From: Alphaproteobacteria bacterium
GTDB lineage: Bacteria; Pseudomonadota; Alphaproteobacteria; JAAXGF01
Direction of reading: 5' to 3'
NCBI GenBank assembly: GCA_963555825.3
Contig: CAUVXB020000002.1
Span: forward strand, 512,001-576,000
Length of the DNA stretch: 64,000 bases
Shown: positions 4,212 to 59,039 of the stretch, in pieces
Numbering within the stretch: position 1 is the stretch's first letter
Layout of the letters: the number at the start of each line of letters is the position of its first letter
Translations under genes and position numbers: made by a program
Notes under the pieces: generated by a model
The model's input: only the letters and a program-made list of their open reading frames with translations
What the model was told of the DNA's origin: nothing
The model's database searches: none

Positions 4212-4810
4212 GCAGCCCTACTCGCCGCGCGGCGCCGGGAATGCCGCTCCCGCCACCCTACGACACGCCCGGTTGTGAGCGACCGCGCTATTTCATATAC
4301 GCCTGCTGCAGCATGTCGGCTGCCTCGGCATAGGCGAGCGCGGAGCCAGCCTTGGCCACCGAGCGACCGTGGTCATATGCGCCCTGCGGCTTCTCGTGAT
4401 TGTGCCTTGCCCCGGTCAGCAAATGCTTGGCGTCGTCGACAAGGGCGTGGACCAGCGCATGCTTTTCCTTCGACATCTGGTCCTTCATGCTCTTCATGTC
4501 GCCCGAGACCTTGTCGATCATCGCCTGCGCGGCGTCGAACCGATTGGGACAGTCGAATGCCTGGGCGGCCGTCGGCAGCTGGAGCATCAGCACTCCCGCC
4601 GTCGCGGCGAGAAACCATTTGTCAATGGCGGAGCAAAAAGGGACCACCTCGGCGGTGTAAGAAGGGACCGCTTGGCGGCTGCGGGCTTGTCCCCGTAGTC
4701 CACGGGAGGGCCCCGCGCGCGACGCGGCGTGCCCTCAACAGGCTGACGCGGCGGCGCGCGCGGGAGGGACCTGTGGGCCCACGGGGTCAAGCGTGGGCTG
4801 GGTGGTCGGT

Positions 4811-5575
4811 TCAGTTAGCAGTCGGGGTTTGACGCCTGCGGCTCTGGTTGAGCCTGTAGCTGTCACCGTTCATCTCGAGGATGTTGACGTGGTGGGTGAG
4901 GCGATCGAGGAGCGCGCCGGTGAGGCGCTCGGAGCCGAACACCTCGGTCCATTCGTCGAAGGGCAGATTGGTGGTGACCAGGGTCGAGCCCCGCTCGTAG
5001 CGTTGGCTGAACACCTCGAACAACAGCTCGGCGCCGGTCTTCGACAGCGGCACGAAGCCGAGTTCGTCGACGATCAGAAGCTTGTAGGTGGCGAGCTTCT
5101 TCTGGAACCTCAGCAGCTGCTTGTCATCGCGGGCCTCGATGAGTTCGTGGACCAGCGCGGCGGCGGTGATGAAGCCGACCGAGAGGCCCTTCTGGCAGGC
5201 CGCCAGGCCGAGACCGAGGGCGATGTGGGTCTTGCCGGTCCCACTGTTGCCGAGCGCGATGAGGTTCTCGCGGCGCTCGATGTACTCGCAGCGGGCCAGC
5301 TCCAGGACCAGCGCCTTGTTGAGCGAGGGGATGACCTTGAAGTCGAAGCTGTCGAGGCTCTTGACCACGGGGAAGCGCGCCGCCTTGATGCGCCGCTCGA
5401 CCATGCGGCGCTCGCGGTCGATCAGCTCGAGCTCGGCGAGTCTCAACAGGTAGCGGACGTGATCGACGCCTTCCGAGGCGCACTGCCGGGCGATCTTGTC
5501 GTACTCGCGCAGGAAGGTCGGCAGCTTCAGCGTCTTGAGGTGGTGGGCGAGCAGCACTTGCGGTGTGTCGGTCAT
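4811..5575 (-). CDS. istB: IS21 helper ATPase IstB
   Basis: GNSGTGKTH Walker A, IVDELG, LDRLTHH. Confidence 0.95.
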   Translation of the reverse strand: MTDTPQVLLAHHLKTLKLPTFLREYDKIARQCASEGVDHVRYLLRLAELELIDRERRMVERRIKAARFPVVKSLDSFDFKVIPSLNKALVLELARCEYIERRENLIALGNSGTGKTHIALGLGLAACQKGLSVGFITAAALVHELIEARDDKQLLRFQKKLATYKLLIVDELGFVPLSKTGAELLFEVFSQRYERGSTLVTTNLPFDEWTEVFGSERLTGALLDRLTHHVNILEMNGDSYRLNQSRRRQTPTAN

Positions 5576-6299
5576 GCGCCGAGCCCCGACAGCAGGCTCA
5601 TGTACGACTTGGCGGACGTCATCGCGACCCGGGCGCGCGGCAGATACGGATAGACGTCGAGGTTGAGCCTGGGCGGCCGCCGCTCGATGCGGCACAGTAC
5701 CAGGTGCTTCACCGCATCAAAGCCGATTGCGCCGAGCCGCAGGGCGTCGCCGACCGCACCCTCGACCTCCTCGAGCCGGAAGGTCTCCAGTAGACGGAGC
5801 ACCTGGACGTACTCGCGCTTGCCTGCCTTGCCCATACGAGCTTCGAGGAGCCGCCGCAGAGTGATGAAGGCCTCGGGCAGGTCCCAGCCCGCCAATGGCG
5901 CGGCCTGGTCGAGGGCGCCGATCTTCTGCTCGATCAAGGGCAGGTAATGCAGCGGGTCGAAGATCAGGTCCTCGCTGTCGTAGGACCGGCGGTGCCGGGC
6001 GATCACCTCGGCCCCGCAGCTGATCACCACCTCATCGACGTAGCCCCGGATGAGCACCTCACGGTGGCCGTAGGCCACGGGCACGGAATAGTCGTTGCTG
6101 CGGTAACGCACCAGCGACAGCGAACTCGCCCGTCCAGGGCGCTTATCGCAGGCATCATAGGGAGCAGGCGGCAATGGCAAGAGAACTTGACGATCCCGCT
6201 CGAGACGCTCGCCGATGGTCTCCTTATATGAGGCGTTTGCTGTCAAGGTGGATTTAATCTACGCCACATGATCGTCTCTTCCATTGGTTATGGCTTTGT

Positions 6300-6540
6300 A
6301 TCCAGGGCGGGTCTTGCGATGAGTTCCGTGTTTCGTGCGAGTGATCGCATCACCTTATATCCGGCAGCTCCGATCCGGCTTGCCACAATGCTGTATACAT
6401 GGACCATCACAGGACGGGGATGGGACTAATCTTGTGGACGGCACCTTCGCCAAGGAGACATGCAGTCACACATCCAACCTGCCAACAAGCGTTCCCATCG
6501 GGGAATGAAGCCCGTTAGAACGCTGAGCTGATCCGCAGTC
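6300..6540 (-). ncRNA. Putative bridge/seek RNA of IS110 element A (boundaries approximate)
   Basis: Contains segments matching both strands of the target (6431-6437, 6451-6459) and of the donor junction (6354-6360, 6388-6394). Confidence 0.8.
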
Positions 6541-7674
6541 CTATTTGACGACAGCACCCACCGGGATCAGCCCGGTTTCCAGATACCGCCAAAGCGCGAT
6601 CGCCAGTTTGCGGGCCAGGGCGACGATCATGACGCGCCTGATGCGCCCCTTCTGACCTTGGGTGCGGTCATGGAACCACTGGGTCAGAGCGCTATCGGGT
6701 TGATGGCGGACCCAAAGCCATGCGGCTTCGATCATGGCAACCCGTGCCAGCCGATTGCCCGCCTTGGAGATGCCTTGGCTGCGGCGCCCGTCGCCGCTGT
6801 CATAGGCACTGGGCGTGATCCCGATATAGCTTGCCACCTGTCGGCGATTGGCGAACTGGCGATAATAGACTTCCCGTGCGAGCGTCGTGGATAAGGCCGG
6901 GCCGAGGCCCTTTAAGCGCAGCAGCTGGTGACGCTTGCTTTCCGTGGCCACACACGGTGTCGGCGCTTGATCACGCTCACGCTCGACCTCGACGATCTGC
7001 GCTTGGACCTGGGCCAGTCTCGCGATCTCCCGCGCGATCTCGCGGCCGAGACGGTCCGGCAGGGGTCGGCCGTCTCCGGTGACCAGCGCCGCCGGTGTCA
7101 AGGTCTTGTAGCGCGCCTTGACATTGATGCCGCGAATGCCCTGACCGAATAGCAGACCCTTGATCCGGTTGATGTGGGCGGTTCGCTCGCGGACCAATCG
7201 GTCACGTTCCCGATGAGAGCGGCGAAGGTCCTCCTCCGCGACGCTCGGAATCACCACCATGGAGCAGACATGACGCTCGCCGCGGCACCAGGCGATCAGC
7301 GTATGAAGAATATTCTCGACATCGATGCGGTCGGTCTTCACCCGCCGCGCCCGGCGGTTGACCCGCAAGCTGGCCGGCTCCATGACCAGACACTCGATGC
7401 CGCGCTGCTCGAGGAACCGCGCCAACCAGAAGCCGTCGTAGCCGGCCTCGTAGCACAGCGTTATCGTCGGCGTTCGACCCGTCACCTTGACCACCCGGTC
7501 CCGCGCCGCGTCCAGCTTGGCCATCAGTCCTTCAGCGTCGCCGCCCTTGATCGGATGCAAGCTCGGATTGCCCCGCCCCGGAGCCTGGATCGCCAAAAGC
7601 CAGCTGTTCTTGCTCAACTCCAGTGCCGCATAAATAGCGTGTTCATTGGAGGTCGATACCGGAAACTGTGCCAT
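6541..7674 (-). CDS. IS110-family DEDD recombinase/transposase
   Basis: ALELSK, CYEAG, KTDRID, SG..ISKAGN, VALARKL motifs. Confidence 0.95.
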   Translation of the reverse strand: MAQFPVSTSNEHAIYAALELSKNSWLLAIQAPGRGNPSLHPIKGGDAEGLMAKLDAARDRVVKVTGRTPTITLCYEAGYDGFWLARFLEQRGIECLVMEPASLRVNRRARRVKTDRIDVENILHTLIAWCRGERHVCSMVVIPSVAEEDLRRSHRERDRLVRERTAHINRIKGLLFGQGIRGINVKARYKTLTPAALVTGDGRPLPDRLGREIAREIARLAQVQAQIVEVERERDQAPTPCVATESKRHQLLRLKGLGPALSTTLAREVYYRQFANRRQVASYIGITPSAYDSGDGRRSQGISKAGNRLARVAMIEAAWLWVRHQPDSALTQWFHDRTQGQKGRIRRVMIVALARKLAIALWRYLETGLIPVGAVVK

Positions 7675-8852
7675 CGTGTCGCTCCTTCTGATCGAGGTTG
7701 AAATAATCGAAGGAGCTTGAGGCTGCGTCCTTCAGCCTCATAGCATCTTGTGGCCCCGCAGCCGCGCCGCCTGGCGCCGGCGGCACTGTTCGGCGAGAGC
7801 ATCGTTGAGGGCCGCGAAGCTCTCGGCACGCGGGACGGGGACCAGGAAGTTCCGCCGGATGAAGCCGACCAGTCCCTCGACCTTGCCCTTGTCGTTGCCC
7901 TTGCCCGGCCGGCCGAACCTGTCCTCGAACAGATAGTGGGACTGAAGCTCCGTGAAGACGCGCGTTCGCTGCCGCTTCCCATCGCCCAGGATCCGGGCAA
8001 CCGCCAGCTTGGTGTTGTCGTACAGGATGGATCGGGGGACGCCGCCGAAGAAGGCAAACGCCGCGTTGTGGCCATCGCAGAATGCTTCGGTCGTCTCCGC
8101 CGGATAGGCCGCAACAAAGCAACCATCACTGTGGGGAAGGTCGAAGGCAAGGAAGTGGATCTTCCGTAACGCGCCGCCGATCACCGCCATCGCTTCGCCG
8201 AAGTCCGCCTGGGCGTGACCGGGGGAATGGGAGAGTGGCACGAACACCTCACGCGACCGAAGCCCCTGCTCACGAACGTAGTCCTTCACGATGGTGTAGC
8301 CGCCCGTGAAACCGTACTCGTCCCGGAGGCGGTCGAAGATGCGCTTCGCAGTGTGCCGTTGCTTGCGGTGGCTGGTCCGATCGTCTTCCAAGATCCGATC
8401 GATGATTCCCGTGAACGGACCCAGCTTTGGCCGCCTCGGCGGCGCGCTTCGGCGATACCCTGGCGGCACCGAGAACGACAGCATCTTACGGACCGTCTTG
8501 CGGTCTACACCAAACACCCGCGAGGCCTCGCGGGTGCTCATCCCCTCGACATGACACGCCCGCCGAACCCGTGCGTACAACTCCACCCGATACATCCCCC
8601 CCGCCTTCCAGTCAGAGCAACCCTGACAGAAGGCTATACGCGGTCCCATTTTGGTCCGCCGCAGCCGGATCGACCGGCCGCTTCAGTGGGGGATTATTGC
8701 TCTGCCGTTCTCAACCATTTCATCTTGTTCATCGAGTCCTCCTTGACCCTTGTGTTCGAAATCGAATGACCATTGCTCGGTACCCCCACCCCGTGCGCGA
8801 ATGACCGCATAGAACCTATAGCCGTTGGCTGGATTGGACAAGTGGGCGCGGC

Positions 8853-56244: not shown

Positions 56245-56362
56245 TGAGAACGGCAGAGCAATAATCCCCCACTGAAGCGGCCGGTCGATCCGGCTGCGGC
56301 GGACCAAAATGGGACCGCGTATAGCCTTCTGTCAGGGTTGTTCTGACTGGAAGGCGGGGGGG

Positions 56363-57862
56363 ATGTATCGGGTGGAGTTGTACGCACGGGTTCGGCGGGC
56401 GTGTCATGTCGAGGGGATGAGCACCCGCGAGGCCTCGCGGGTGTTTGGTGTAGACCGCAAGACGGTCCGTAAGATGCTGTCGTTCTCGGTGCCGCCAGGG
56501 TATCGCCGAAGCGCGCCGCCGAGGCGGCCAAAGCTGGGTCCGTTCACGGGAATCATCGATCGGATCTTGGAAGACGATCGGACCAGCCACCGCAAGCAAC
56601 GGCACACTGCGAAGCGCATCTTCGACCGCCTCCGGGACGAGTACGGTTTCACGGGCGGCTACACCATCGTGAAGGACTACGTTCGTGAGCAGGGGCTTCG
56701 GTCGCGTGAGGTGTTCGTGCCACTCTCCCATTCCCCCGGTCACGCCCAGGCGGACTTCGGCGAAGCGATGGCGGTGATCGGCGGCGCGTTACGGAAGATC
56801 CACTTCCTTGCCTTCGACCTTCCCCACAGTGATGGTTGCTTTGTTGCGGCCTATCCGGCGGAGACGACCGAAGCATTCTGCGATGGCCACAACGCGGCGT
56901 TTGCCTTCTTCGGCGGCGTCCCCCGATCCATCCTGTACGACAACACCAAGCTGGCGGTTGCCCGGATCCTGGGCGATGGGAAGCGGCAGCGAACGCGCGT
57001 CTTCACGGAGCTTCAGTCCCACTATCTGTTCGAGGACAGGTTCGGCCGGCCGGGCAAGGGCAACGACAAGGGCAAGGTCGAGGGACTGGTCGGCTTCATC
57101 CGGCGGAACTTCCTGGTCCCCGTCCCGCGTGCCGAGAGCTTCGCGGCCCTCAACGATGCTCTCGCCGAACAGTGCCGCCGGCGCCAGGCGGCGCGGCTGC
57201 GGGGCCACAAGGAGACCATCGGCGAGCGTCTCGAGCGGGATCGTCAAGTTCTCTTGCCATTGCCGCCTGCTCCCTATGATGCCTGCGATAAGCGCCCTGG
57301 ACGGGCGAGTTCGCTGTCGCTGGTGCGTTACCGCAGCAACGACTATTCCGTGCCCGTGGCCTACGGCCACCGTGAGGTGCTCATCCGGGGCTACGTCGAT
57401 GAGGTGGTGATCAGCTGCGGGGCCGAGGTGATCGCCCGGCACCGCCGGTCCTACGACAGCGAGGACCTGATCTTCGACCCGCTGCATTACCTGCCCTTGA
57501 TCGAGCAGAAGATCGGCGCCCTCGACCAGGCCGCGCCATTGGCGGGCTGGGACCTGCCCGAGGCCTTCATCACTCTGCGGCGGCTCCTCGAAGCTCGTAT
57601 GGGCAAGGCAGGCAAGCGCGAGTACGTCCAGGTGCTCCGTCTACTGGAGACCTTCCGGCTCGAGGAGGTCGAGGGTGCGGTCGGCGACGCCCTGCGGCTC
57701 GGCGCAATCGGCTTTGATGCGGTGAAGCACCTGGTACTGTGCCGCATCGAGCGGCGGCCGCCCAGGCTCAACCTCGACGTCTATCCGTATCTGCCGCGCG
57801 CCCGGGTCGCGATGACGTCCGCCAAGTCGTACATGAGCCTGCTGTCGGGGCTCGGCGCATGA
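56363..57862 (+). CDS. istA: IS21 transposase IstA
   Basis: HTH, AQADFG, LYDN, KGKVE. Confidence 0.95.
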   Translation: MYRVELYARVRRACHVEGMSTREASRVFGVDRKTVRKMLSFSVPPGYRRSAPPRRPKLGPFTGIIDRILEDDRTSHRKQRHTAKRIFDRLRDEYGFTGGYTIVKDYVREQGLRSREVFVPLSHSPGHAQADFGEAMAVIGGALRKIHFLAFDLPHSDGCFVAAYPAETTEAFCDGHNAAFAFFGGVPRSILYDNTKLAVARILGDGKRQRTRVFTELQSHYLFEDRFGRPGKGNDKGKVEGLVGFIRRNFLVPVPRAESFAALNDALAEQCRRRQAARLRGHKETIGERLERDRQVLLPLPPAPYDACDKRPGRASSLSLVRYRSNDYSVPVAYGHREVLIRGYVDEVVISCGAEVIARHRRSYDSEDLIFDPLHYLPLIEQKIGALDQAAPLAGWDLPEAFITLRRLLEARMGKAGKREYVQVLRLLETFRLEEVEGAVGDALRLGAIGFDAVKHLVLCRIERRPPRLNLDVYPYLPRARVAMTSAKSYMSLLSGLGA

Positions 57863-58623
57863 CCGACACACCGCAAGTGCTGCTCGCCCACCACCTCAAG
57901 ACGCTGAAGCTGCCGACCTTCCTGCGCGAGTACGACAAGATCGCCCGGCAGTGCGCCTCGGAAGGCGTCGATCACGTCCGCTACCTGTTGAGACTCGCCG
58001 AGCTCGAGCTGATCGACCGCGAGCGCCGCATGGTCGAGCGGCGCATCAAGGCGGCGCGCTTCCCCGTGGTCAAGAGCCTCGACAGCTTCGACTTCAAGGT
58101 CATCCCCTCGCTCAACAAGGCGCTGGTCCTGGAGCTGGCCCGCTGCGAGTACATCGAGCGCCGCGAGAACCTCATCGCGCTCGGCAACAGTGGGACCGGC
58201 AAGACCCACATCGCCCTCGGTCTCGGCCTGGCGGCCTGCCAGAAGGGCCTCTCGGTCGGCTTCATCACCGCCGCCGCGCTGGTCCACGAACTCATCGAGG
58301 CCCGCGATGACAAGCAGCTGCTGAGGTTCCAGAAGAAGCTCGCCACCTACAAGCTTCTGATCGTCGACGAACTCGGCTTCGTGCCGCTGTCGAAGACCGG
58401 CGCCGAGCTGTTGTTCGAGGTGTTCAGCCAACGCTACGAGCGGGGCTCGACCCTGGTCACCACCAATCTGCCCTTCGACGAATGGACCGAGGTGTTCGGC
58501 TCCGAGCGCCTCACCGGCGCGCTCCTCGATCGCCTCACCCACCACGTCAACATCCTCGAGATGAACGGTGACAGCTACAGGCTCAACCAGAGCCGCAGGC
58601 GTCAAACCCCGACTGCTAACTGA
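57859..58623 (+). CDS. istB: IS21 helper ATPase IstB
   Basis: GNSGTGKTH, IVDELG. Confidence 0.95.
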   Translation: MTDTPQVLLAHHLKTLKLPTFLREYDKIARQCASEGVDHVRYLLRLAELELIDRERRMVERRIKAARFPVVKSLDSFDFKVIPSLNKALVLELARCEYIERRENLIALGNSGTGKTHIALGLGLAACQKGLSVGFITAAALVHELIEARDDKQLLRFQKKLATYKLLIVDELGFVPLSKTGAELLFEVFSQRYERGSTLVTTNLPFDEWTEVFGSERLTGALLDRLTHHVNILEMNGDSYRLNQSRRRQTPTAN

Positions 58624-59039
58624 ACCGACCACCCAGCCCACGCTTGACCCCGTGGGCCCACAGGTCCCTCCCGCGCGCGCCGCCGCGTCAGCCTGTTGAG
58701 GGCACGCCGCGTCGCGCGCGGGGCCCTCCCGTGGACTACGGGGACAAGCCCGCAGCCGCCAAGCGGTCCCTTCTTACACCGCCGAGGTGGTCCCTTTTTG
58801 CTCCGCCATTGACAGCAAGAGACGTGAACGACCGCTTTGTCCCCATCCATGCCGATCAGATAGACATTCACGACGGCCGTTTCGGGCCGATCTGAGACCA
58901 TCGCAATTGGCACGAGTCGACCCGAAGTGGTTATTCACAGCTGCCTGACCGAATGTCGGCTTCCGAATCGCGTACCGGCCGTCCACACTCGGCGATCGAT
59001 ACGGCTGGAGTTGGCTGATTTCTGGCTTTCCTCAGAAAC

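Follow-up and report, generated by a model that had tools for sequence, protein, structure and literature searches.

A ~1.5-kb insertion sequence of the IS110 family occupies positions 6226 to 7746 on the minus strand of the window, the 64,000-nucleotide stretch of an alphaproteobacterial contig that was analyzed, and splits istA of an IS21 copy at CCACAAGGAGAC. Judged from its sequence, this is very probably an active or recently active element of IS1111-type layout, in which a predicted bridge (seek) RNA of ~178 nt guides insertion. The element and the interrupted IS21 comprise the following features.

4811 to 5695: istB, after the C-terminal part of istA (open reading frame and Pfam)
5572 to 6222, minus strand: C-terminal part of the interrupted istA (Mu-transpos_C_2; open reading frame and Pfam)
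6223 to 6225: CTT (AAG on the minus strand), common to target and element, at the right-end junction; contains the AG/CT core
6226 to 7746, minus strand: IS110-family (IS1111-like) insertion sequence, 1521 bp between two CTT/AAG copies, delimited by comparing the flanks with intact IS21
6227 to 6234, minus strand: right sub-terminal inverted repeat GCCTCATA, paired with TATGAGGC of the left end
6241 to 6246, minus strand: outward TTGACA, candidate −35 of a promoter that would be complete only in a circle, with a 17-nt spacer and then GATGCT (core G plus left end)
6541 to 7674, minus strand: transposase/recombinase, 377 aa, with acidic residues E19, E76, D115, and D118 and Ser293 in GITPSAYDSG
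7675 to 7746, minus strand: short left (5′) non-coding end, beginning with ATGC, followed by the sub-terminal inverted repeat TATGAGGC (7742 to 7735)
7747 to 7749: second CTT/AAG copy, at the left-end junction (sequence comparison)
7750 to 8649, minus strand: N-terminal part of the interrupted istA (rve domain; open reading frame and Pfam)
57205 to 57216, plus strand: empty target CCACAAGGAGAC in an intact IS21 copy (56245 to 58814), from flank alignment

The boundaries follow from the intact IS21 copy, to which both flanks of the interrupted one are 100% identical (4620 to 6225 against 57209 to 58814 and 7747 to 8713 against 56245 to 57211). The two matching arms overlap by 3 nt, and CTT is therefore found at both junctions (6223 to 6225 and 7747 to 7749); with one CTT included, the insert is 1524 bp long. 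The sequence-only reading had located the empty target correctly, and its five minus-strand motifs were likewise all found in place: GTCTCCTTG (6459 to 6451), CCACAAG (6437 to 6431), ACAGCAT (6394 to 6388), ATATAAG (6360 to 6354), and TTGACA (6246 to 6241). Within istA, the insertion point (...HK|ET...) lies between the rve and C-terminal domains. The non-coding ends of the element are unequal (72 nt at the 5′ side versus 315 nt at the 3′ side), and its left end is kept in 13 relatives. The 8-bp sub-terminal inverted repeats, TATGAGGC (7742 to 7735) and GCCTCATA (6234 to 6227), are also kept in relatives, and outside them lie ATGC on the left, T on the right, and the shared AAG, a total of 8 bp. 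Insertion has the traits expected of IS110, i.e., one orientation, a motif-specific site, and a repeat limited to the 3-nt overlap.

The crossover core is the dinucleotide AG (CT on the other strand), since the left flanks of relatives end in AAG, GAG, TAG, or CAG and only AG is constant. The trinucleotide AAG was considered as the core and dropped because relatives show GAG, TAG, and CAG. A CT core had been proposed before; the arms do meet around a shared core, but AG is on the transposase strand of this AG/CT dinucleotide.

The 377-aa transposase carries both domains by which the IS110 family is recognized, RuvC-like DEDD (PF01548, DEDD_Tnp_IS110; E = 1.1e-9, residues 63 to 175) and Transposase_20 (PF02371; E = 1.6e-16). 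The NCBIfam model NF033542, “IS110 family RNA-guided transposase,” aligns with residues 15 to 368 at 204 bits, against a cut-off of 140. The conserved Ser-Gly motif of the family, stated as G--P----SG (PMC11187229), is present as GITPSAYDSG, with Ser293 at the position of the nucleophile. E76, D115, and D118 occupy their customary motifs (YEAG and KTDxxD), and the first position of the tetrad is Glu19, within ALELSK (residues 17 to 22); the PF01548 match begins at residue 63, leaving residues 1 to 62 outside the Pfam alignment. Replacement of the first Asp by Glu had been seen earlier as a feature of this copy; Glu19 was confirmed, but it is a trait of the whole clade, being found in 54 of 54 distinct relatives. 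The first-acidic column of 113 aligned family representatives (E in 96, D in 15, H in 1, and a gap in 1) conserves acidity rather than Asp itself, a pattern that fits a functional acidic residue.

Only the C-terminal half of the transposase aligned to the IS621 and ISCro4 transposases in a phmmer search against the PDB (E = 7e-8 for IS621), and no alignment of the N-terminal RuvC-like domain to the IS110 structures in the PDB was obtained with phmmer, so Glu19 cannot be placed on a solved structure. In tblastn searches against plasmids, the best match was 57% identical and annotated only as “IS110 family transposase.” The named plasmid elements ISSso6, IS5708, and IS1618 were 24 to 26% identical, and named enterobacterial IS110-like transposases on plasmids showed only 22 to 27% identity.

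The 315-nt end 3′ of the recombinase gene, already suspected to be the guide region, is predicted from alignments (RNAalifold) to fold into two internal loops, each divided by a hairpin, with arms that match both target strands. Its parts are as follows.

6306 to 6483, minus strand: predicted bridge/seek RNA core, ~178 nt (RNAalifold), with outer stem 6483 to 6476/6313 to 6306
6451 to 6462, minus strand: 5′ arm of the target loop, CAUGUCUCCUUG, predicted to pair with the top strand (core and right flank)
6439 to 6452, minus strand: small hairpin (UGGC...GCCG) dividing the target loop; helices 4 and 5, with one GC-to-UA compensatory change
6431 to 6439, minus strand: 3′ arm of the target loop, GUCCACAAG, in top-strand sense, predicted to pair with the bottom strand (left flank and core)
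6387 to 6392, minus strand: 5′ arm of the donor loop, AGCAUU, predicted to pair with the first left-end bases (ATGCT) and to reach the core through a single G-U
6362 to 6385, minus strand: hairpin dividing the donor loop (UGGCAAGCCGGAUCGGAGCUGCCG); helices 9 to 11, 93 to 100% paired, with compensatory changes
6354 to 6360, minus strand: 3′ arm of the donor loop, AUAUAAG, the same sequence as the last right-end bases and core

The structure is conserved across 50 distinct sequences, in which 85% of positions are paired (34 to 43% in slid controls) and 33 of 44 base pairs show changes on both sides; the observed values were reached in 0 of 500 shuffles, in a broad alignment that was fitted to a related model and thus favors structure. 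Pairing is weak in the donor-loop outer stem (59 to 64% in the broad alignment). A covariance model of the RNA found 68 places in 81 sources, all 3′ of the transposase gene, and 14 matches in the host genome. The whole 315-nt end folded alone was no better than shuffles (z = +0.91), and the structure emerged only from the alignments. A scan of positions 5800 to 8200 against Rfam with E values up to 10 gave two chance matches (E of about 9.6) and no bridge-RNA family. Contigs of RNA libraries cover the non-coding end (X17 on 6222 to 6618 and X11 across the whole element), which gives weak support, as libraries of this kind may contain DNA. No X17 contig lies on 6649 to 7685, while 6222 to 6618 is covered; the uncovered part proves nothing.

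At the IS21 site the 5′ arm of the target loop is the complement of CAAGGAGAC, and at three further sites that of CAAGGAGACAT; the 3′ arm matches the left flanks CCACAAG (IS21) and GTCCACAAG (L001). The second loop had been taken to carry guides for the circle junction, and this was borne out for the 3′ arm, where ATATAAG co-varies with the right end. The 5′ arm tracks the left end only in part, and the match proposed as ACAGCAT is really AGCAU(U), of 5 to 6 nt, the C at 6393 being a conserved mismatch. This arm also lacks the full complement of the core, with UG where CU is expected, and it is the weakest of the four guides. When the 315-nt end was shuffled 20,000 times with its dinucleotides preserved, core-anchored matches of at least 7 nt on both sides arose 6 times; comparison with relatives gives much stronger evidence than this shuffle test.

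In 27 distinct relatives, changes in the two target-loop arms are matched by changes in the flanks, the 5′ arm following the right flank and the 3′ arm the left. Right flank CGGACA is accompanied by target arm UGUCCG (L021, L024, and L031), GGGTTCTC by GAGAACCC (L069, L080, and L086), TCGAGCT by AGCUCGA (L070 and L071), and GATGACA by UGUCAUC (L087), and the left flanks GGTAGAG, GTAATAG, GCCAAAG, CCGCGAG, and CCCTGAG recur in the target 3′ arm of the relatives concerned. Some differences between arm and flank are rU-dG or rG-dT wobbles (L023, L031, and L057-L058). When flanks were permuted among the 27 distinct elements, the mean score was 13.4 of 16 for an element's own flanks and 10.4 (standard deviation, 1.15) for the flanks of others, and 13 of 27 own pairs scored at least 14, compared with 0.58% of 692 cross pairs. 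In the donor loop, 46 of 71 loci carry the 7-mer of the 3′ arm again at a right end, and the two change together through five variants (ATATAAG, ATGTGAG, ATACGAG, ATATGAG, and ATGTAAG). The 5′ arm co-varies with left-end position 3 in several clades (G:C, C:G, and T:A) and is mismatched to the left end in L043-L045, in L055, and in clades with A at that position. The right flank of the target is GAGAC here versus CGGAC in the nearest relatives, a natural retargeting.

The host genome contains 11 near-identical full-length copies: 8 are identical, including that in the window, 2 have one SNP, and 1 has a 2-nt length difference. Seven full and two truncated copies are at the same IS21 site (GGCCACAAG|GAGACCAT), in identical position and orientation. 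Four full copies and one left-end fragment are outside IS21, all at YYAYAAG-GAGAC; the full copies are at GTCCACAAG|GAGACGAG, CATCACAAG|GAGACATC, AGCCATAAG|GAGACATA, and GGTCACAAG|GAGACATT, and the fragment is at GGCTACAAG|-. The five distinct full-copy sites and the fragment thus have YYAYAAG|GAGAC in common, in one orientation. The natural left flanks TCACAAG (twice) and CCATAAG, as well as CTACAAG of the fragment, would give rC-dA mismatches with the arm.

The host has ~80 IS21 copies, ~70 of them intact, and 73 of 78 matching empty sites in its genome are within IS21. Most insertions split istA because the matching sequence occurs almost only in the istA of these ~80 copies, and 9 of ~82 istA sites are occupied. 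The expectation that other copies would share the flank motif and fall in istA therefore held for the motif, which is common to all, but only in part for istA, given the four full copies and one fragment elsewhere. Similarly, the proposal of RNA-guided insertion into IS21 gains from the site match and the covariation, but IS21 is the commonest matching site of the element, not its sole target. From the 11 near-identical copies and the natural retargeting, we infer that recombinase and RNA form an intact and programmable pair.

The element could be RNA guided as proposed and yet owe most of its IS21-borne copies to the spread of a single composite, IS21::IS110, mobilized by IstA supplied in trans from the ~70 intact IS21 copies. 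This is possible but doubtful. The seven full and two truncated IS21-borne copies do share exactly one position and orientation, but such identity is expected under either reading, because an RNA-guided element must hit the same position in the same orientation. IS21 has been very active, judging from its ~80 copies, and four of seven reconstructed IS21 hosts carry the majority haplotype of 34 intact copies, with nothing to mark independence. Against this, the interrupted copies share no private SNP, and three of the seven have different private variants; the four full copies and one fragment outside IS21 indicate that the element moves on its own; and a composite would depend wholly on trans-acting IstA because its own istA is split. 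Comparison of IS21 haplotypes did not separate independent insertion from composite spread.

Two further alternatives would remove the guide RNA or its activity, and both are improbable, the first to the point of being hardly credible. If the protein alone chose the target, the matches in the 3′ end would be leftovers of ends or target with no guiding role; the RNA is indeed deduced from sequence only, the matches are short (7 to 12 nt), and the 315-nt end is not unusually stable. Yet these matches keep their positions within a conserved, co-varying scaffold, and in 27 distinct elements they vary along with the flanks while the scaffold is constant, several of the differences are wobble pairs, which are sensible only for RNA-DNA pairing, and RNA guiding has been experimentally established for relatives (PMC11208160, PMC11208158, and PMC11187229). 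The window copy might instead be a dead relic, with old copies and an inoperative Glu19 recombinase or RNA, as the Glu in place of the canonical first Asp, the lack of a circle junction in contigs, and the lack of a promoter-like site inside the integrated copy could suggest. This is unlikely: the open reading frame is intact, Glu is present in 54 of 54 distinct relatives and 96 of 113 family representatives (Asp in 15), and of the 11 full copies 8 share the same 1521-bp sequence, two have a single SNP, and one is changed in length by 2 nt.

Under the favored reading of an active or recently active RNA-guided element, the element would excise as a circle with a junction reading ...CATAT-AAG-ATGCT..., and the joined ends would form a promoter (TTGACA, 17 nt, and GATGCT). 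Insertion at GTCCACAAGGAGACATG or at the IS21 site would require the ~178-nt RNA. The donor 5′ arm AGCAUU would bind where the left end begins, and the RNA-recombinase complex would recombine the circle junction with any DNA reading about YYAYA-AG-GAGAC, with strand exchange at the AG/CT core and without duplication. The anatomy, the common flank motif, the covariation of guides with flanks and ends, the conserved structure, and the copy number are established here, whereas the synthesis and maturation of the RNA, the circle, catalysis, and the sequence of steps in this scheme are inferred. The outward TTGACA suggested earlier as part of a circle-junction promoter is consistent with its conservation: of 27 distinct right ends, 26 have TTGnnn at a distance of 16 to 19 nt from the end of the core, and in 15 it is a perfect TTGACA. 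The candidate −10, GATGCT, is weak, matching at only 3 of 6 positions, and the junction promoter was judged by eye. A promoter scan found no sigma-70-like site in the integrated element (0 sites), and no circle-junction joint was found among contigs of four sequencing runs. The joint from 6222 to 7747 in contigs of three runs represents only the uninterrupted form of IS21 (~70 in the genome).

Several features are shared with described IS1111-group elements (ISEc11, ISKpn4, ISPst6, and ISPa11), which likewise have a long non-coding region 3′ of the gene and sub-terminal inverted repeats (PMC11187229 and PMC11208160), site- and orientation-specific insertion without true duplication, and an outward −35 at the right end. 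The order of the arms, with the top-strand match 5′ of the bottom-strand match, is also that described for IS1111-family seekRNAs (PMC11187229). In contrast, the transposase has 377 aa versus the 330 to 350 aa given for IS1111-family enzymes (PMC11187229), and the 8-bp inverted repeat is at the short end of the range (usually 11 to 13 bp in PMC11187229 and 7 to 17 bp in PMC11208160). Terminal extensions in IS1111 are given as 7 (or 6) plus 3 bp, 9 to 10 in total, versus 8 bp here. Glu as the first acidic residue is a further difference. The element is IS1111-like in its layout, not a proven member of the IS1111 group.

The bridge RNA of IS621, at 177 nt, is nearly the same size as the ~178 nt predicted here and, as described in PMC11208160 and PMC11208158, likewise has two internal loops divided by hairpins, one arm per DNA strand, and the core within the pairings. 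The core is CT in IS621 and AG on the transposase strand here, and Ser is present in the SG motif of both. Unlike in IS621, where the RNA is 5′ of the gene and the order of the arms is reversed, the RNA is 3′ of the gene and its donor 5′ arm is without the full core complement.

In a literature search, no title or opening part of an abstract pointed to IS110-family elements aimed at IS21, but target logos in supplements of the 2024 papers, covering >300 IS, may list one. Some IS1111-type elements have a specific site within another mobile element, in that case a transposon end and not a coding sequence. A closer parallel is ISEc21 of the IS110 family, which is likewise RNA guided and in nature targets a conserved segment of IS3-family transposase genes (PMC11187229). 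It differs from the present element, in which the RNA is downstream and the target is istA of the IS21 family, at a point separating the rve domain from the Mu-transposase C-terminal domain. ISMch6 has been described as naturally retargeted through a few base changes in its guide (PMC11187229).

Bridge/seek RNAs in IS1111-type ends and an IS-targeting IS110 element are already published, and the element described here is a new example with no new mechanism. It adds an example and not a principle because the mechanism was published in 2024 and NCBI names the family “IS110 family RNA-guided transposase.” Its value lies in a compact recombinase-RNA pair, evidently active in recent times and belonging to a deeply diverged clade that has been little studied, with guide positions mapped base by base, natural retargeting readable from relatives, and an unusual Glu at the first catalytic position. 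A single genome illustrates the spread of such an element among the copies of another insertion sequence. The pair is a possible further orthologue for programmable recombination and a test case for parasitism of one insertion sequence on another.

Two lineages, with proteins only 47 to 48% identical, are both found in istA in the orientation of the gene, at different places. The second (the L057-L068/L077-L083 group) interrupts conserved codons (...DK|GKVE...) where the rve core ends, and does so in several different IS21 relatives and genomes. Tentatively, some lineages of this alphaproteobacterial IS110 branch, whose first catalytic position is Glu, may be specialized as parasites of the IS21 family. 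If selection and not accident lies behind the targeting of a multicopy transposase gene, such elements would ride on IS21 expansions and also curb them.

The IS110-family element occupies 6226-7746 on the minus strand of the window and splits the istA gene of an IS21 copy at 4620-8713. Every motif and coordinate of the sequence-only reading was found again in the sequence at 5900-8100 and on the minus strand at 6200-6560. The element and its site comprise the following features.

6541-7674, minus strand: transposase ORF, 377 aa, Pfam DEDD_Tnp_IS110 and Transposase_20
7738-8649: rve part of istA (Pfam), one flank of the element
5572-6246: Mu-transposase C-terminal part of istA (Pfam), other flank of the element
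4811-5695: istB, after the C-terminal part of istA
57205-57216: empty site CCACAAGGAGAC in the intact IS21 copy

The ORF matches NCBIfam NF033542 ("IS110 family RNA-guided transposase") at 204 bits (cut-off, 140) and is bordered by non-coding ends of 72 nt upstream and 315 nt downstream. In a repeat search, the flanks were 100% identical to the intact IS21 copy at 56245-58814, and the two IS21-matching arms share 3 nt, which makes the insert 1524 bp if one CTT is included (AAG on the transposase strand). Other repeats in the window, exact or nearly so (300-nt direct, 13628-13927/31634-31933; 1042-nt inverted, 28665-29706/59993-61034; 783-nt inverted, 79%, 12198-12980/14988-15770), are probably further insertion sequences.

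The claim that the target-loop arms match the two strands around the core is borne out by covariation with the flanks in 27 distinct elements. For the window alone, both core-anchored matches reached at least 7 nt in 6 of 20,000 dinucleotide shuffles. In a scan limited to one genome per species, relatives were encoded at 409 places, of which 80 loci were kept (47-89% protein identity, mostly alphaproteobacterial MAGs). When the 3' ends of the 13 closest relatives were aligned, a constant scaffold was broken by two variable patches, exactly at the positions first read as guides. Read as its reverse complement, the 5' patch gives the core plus the right flank: UGUCCG with CGGACA (L021, L024, and L031), CGUCCG with CGGACG (L027), and, with one U-G pair, CGGUAG with CTGCCG (L023). 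The 3' patch repeats the left flank (CCAAAAG in L024, GGTAGAG in L025, GGTAAAG in L027, CCCTGAG in L034, and CCGCGAG in L036). Distant relatives show the same pattern (GAGAACCC with GGGTTCTC, AGCUCGA with TCGAGCT, and UGUCAUC with GATGACA). Both ends were located in 42 loci, representing the 27 distinct elements, and each RNA region was scored against its own flanks and against those of all others with a different target. The mean match over 16 positions was 13.4 for own and 10.4 (sd 1.15) for foreign flanks; wobble pairs received no credit, so the own-flank score understates the fit. Scores of at least 14 were reached by 13 of 27 own pairs and by 0.58% of 692 cross pairs, the pairs being partly non-independent through shared ancestry of the elements.

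A few guide bases set the element apart from its nearest relatives (GAGAC for CGGAC; CCACAAG for CCAAAAG), a case of natural retargeting. These relatives (L021, L022, L024, and L031; 81-89% identical) sit in palindromes of the form ATGTCCGCTTT-N-AAAGCGGACAT that resemble REP or terminator hairpins.

The predicted ~178-nt RNA (6306-6483) has three layers in the RNAalifold consensus of 13 sequences.

6483-6476 with 6313-6306, minus strand: outer stem
6475-6464 with 6427-6418, minus strand: target-loop stem, enclosing a small hairpin (6452-6439)
6410-6401 with 6327-6316, minus strand: donor-loop stem, enclosing a longer hairpin (6385-6362)

From this structure a covariance model was built; it matched at 68 places in 81 sources, each time downstream of the gene and in its orientation. 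The model's 14 matches in the element's own genome are the 11 full copies, 2 truncated copies, and 1 distant relative. The last (C2:2829427-2829599) is weak, at 36 bits, with different arms (GUGCUUCCUU and CACUAUAG), and adjoins a 69-71% identical IS110-family remnant, a second, older relative in this genome. A hand-drawn structure was 85% paired in 50 distinct rows, versus 34-43% with partners slid, and 33 of 44 pairs changed on both sides, scores reached by 0 of 500 shuffles; the underlying alignment had been fitted to a related structure, which biases these counts in the structure's favor. Pairing is weak in the outer stem of the donor loop (59-64%). Folded alone, the 315-nt end showed no unusual stability (z = +0.91), and no Rfam family matched the 3' end of the element.

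The proposed CT core also stands: the last three bases of the left flank in relatives are AAG, GAG, TAG, or CAG, of which only AG is constant, and the IS621 core dinucleotide is CT, its opposite-strand equivalent (PMC11208158). That the window copy shares a third base (AAG) results from chance agreement between flank and element end. The match of the donor loop to the circle junction fared differently for its two arms. The 3' arm 7-mer recurs downstream, after a CTCAT-like inverted repeat, in 46 of 71 loci, and arm and right end change together in five versions (ATATAAG, ATGTGAG, ATACGAG, ATATGAG, and ATGTAAG). The 5' arm is weaker: its pairing with the left end, G-ATGCT, extends no further than AGCAU and a single U facing the core G, there is a conserved mismatch at 6393 (C), and the element has UG where IS621-style pairing expects the core complement CU, although some clades have CU or UU. 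Left-end position 3 covaries with this arm across clades (G with C, C with G, and T with A), but there are mismatches in clades with A at this position and in L043-L045 and L055. Three of the four guides can thus be regarded as established by covariation, and the fourth, the donor 5' arm, is probable.

The guides had further been read as matching IS21 istA, and the other copies show that this is not the only target. The 6.04-Mb genome (two contigs) holds 11 full-length copies, of which, over 1521 bp, 8 are identical, 2 have one SNP, and 1 has a 2-nt length difference. Seven full and two truncated copies occupy the same IS21 position (GGCCACAAG/GAGACCAT in transposase orientation), but four full copies (GTCCACAAG/GAGACGAG, CATCACAAG/GAGACATC, AGCCATAAG/GAGACATA, and GGTCACAAG/GAGACATT) and one left-end fragment (GGCTACAAG, left flank) lie elsewhere. 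These non-IS21 sites include the interior of a serine-recombinase-like gene, a position ~60 nt upstream of another IS110-family gene, an intergenic site, and one adjoining a DUF772 transposase gene. The flank motif itself, YYAYAAG-GAGAC, is common to all occupied sites, and at three of the four non-IS21 sites the right flank continues with AT, so that 10-11 nt match the RNA arm CAUGUCUCCUUG. IS21 is present in ~80 copies, most >99.9% identical (50 full-length at >99%, many more split by other insertions), a massive recent IS expansion. Empty sites that fit YYAYAAGGAGAC number 78, of which 73 are in IS21 and only 5 outside it, which makes IS21 the commonest matching sequence rather than a target in its own right. 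Two of the five (C2:2412046 and C2:2769914) are paralogues of the occupied L005 site and the L001 serine-recombinase-like gene; the non-IS21 targets are therefore themselves repeated, and probably mobile, DNA. The seven full IS21-borne copies may reflect separate insertions or composite transposition with IstA in trans; their host IS21s comprise four of the majority haplotype and three with different private variants, with no shared marker.

Another lineage (L057-L068 and L077-L083; 47-48% identical) sits at a different place in IS21-family istA of other genomes. These relatives share the istA orientation (L057, L058, L061, L064, L067, and L078, at ~1390-1400 and 2890-2960 in locus coordinates; also L059, L062, L066, L068, and L077-L083). 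The left-flank ORF ends at rve-profile position 100-102 of 102 in the six loci checked, and the Mu-transposase C-terminal domain follows in all four with the right flank scanned (L058, L064, L067, and L078). The flanks, GACAAG and GGCAAGGTCGAG, encode D-K/G-K-V-E at the very end of the rve core, a motif also present in the window's IS21 at 57069-57080, ~130 bp upstream of the element's site; the target arms fit through several G-U pairs. That two distant lineages of one clade appear to be aimed at istA may be more than accident. Among the titles and abstract openings searched, none pointed to a report of this.

The Glu in place of Asp at the first DEDD position (Glu19, in ALELSK) is present but is not particular to this copy. 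All 54 distinct locus-encoded relatives have it, and the alignment column holds 96 E, 15 D, 1 H, and 1 gap (112 representative proteins of 330-450 aa plus the element's); Glu19 therefore characterizes the clade, at a position where D and E replace one another, and is hardly a defect, given 11 near-identical copies. The other residues are E76, D115, D118, and Ser293 (in GITPSAYDSG). Alignment to the IS621 and ISCro4 transposase structures is confined to the C-terminal half, which leaves the structural role of Glu19 to be judged from the protein alignment.

A circle-junction promoter is known for the family (PMC11187229); the outward TTGACA (6246-6241), 18 nt from the core end, is consistent with one and may serve as one here. 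Its position and conservation hold, as 26 of the 27 distinct right ends carry a TTGnnn hexamer 16-19 nt before the core end (perfect TTGACA in 15), but the -10 that the circle would provide after a 17-nt spacer, GATGCT (core G plus left end), is weak (3/6 matches). A promoter scan found no sigma-70-like site within the integrated copy.

Sixteen public runs, including six RNA libraries, contain most of the window sequence, and contigs of three RNA runs and one DNA run were compared with the window. Contigs of X11, X17, and X5 contain the joint 6222->7747 (3 ambiguous bases), which is the uninterrupted IS21 form. The non-coding end is covered by RNA-library contigs in X17 (6222-6618), and the whole element in X11, which is compatible with transcription but no proof of it, as DNA can occur in such libraries. 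After 6369, one RNA-library contig of X11 (6331-6369, depth 8) switches to the right end of a related element (TATATGAGGCATTTTCTGTCAAGG...), apparently through insertion of a relative into another copy at its donor-loop hairpin region, though an assembly artefact could give the same picture.

Durrant et al. 2024 (PMC11208160) defined target- and donor-binding loops with the core in all four pairings and predicted that 93% of IS1111 elements carry a bridge RNA in their right end, and Hiraizumi et al. 2024 (PMC11208158) described a 177-nt RNA, a CT core, D11/E60/D102/D105, and S241. The element has the arm order of the IS1111-type seekRNAs of Siddiquee et al. 2024 (PMC11187229), with the top-strand match before the bottom-strand match. 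The layout is that of IS1111, but with a longer enzyme (377 aa versus 330-350) and shorter repeats, and a search of plasmids gave no named reference closer than 57% to the transposase; the element is IS1111-like rather than a proven IS1111 member. The concept as a whole, insertion into the transposase gene of another IS included, is already in print, the ISEc21 target being a conserved stretch in an IS3-family transposase gene (PMC11187229). The original observation is confirmed and its interpretation supported with minor corrections: the element is a new, well-resolved example of a known mechanism, for which we infer transcription, a circle, and catalysis. Natural retargeting has been described (Siddiquee et al. 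2024; PMC11187229). In X19, a marine-sediment RNA library, two contigs carry C and G at 6455-6456, giving the target arm the same CGGAC type as in the nearest relatives; different guide variants of the family coexist in nature.
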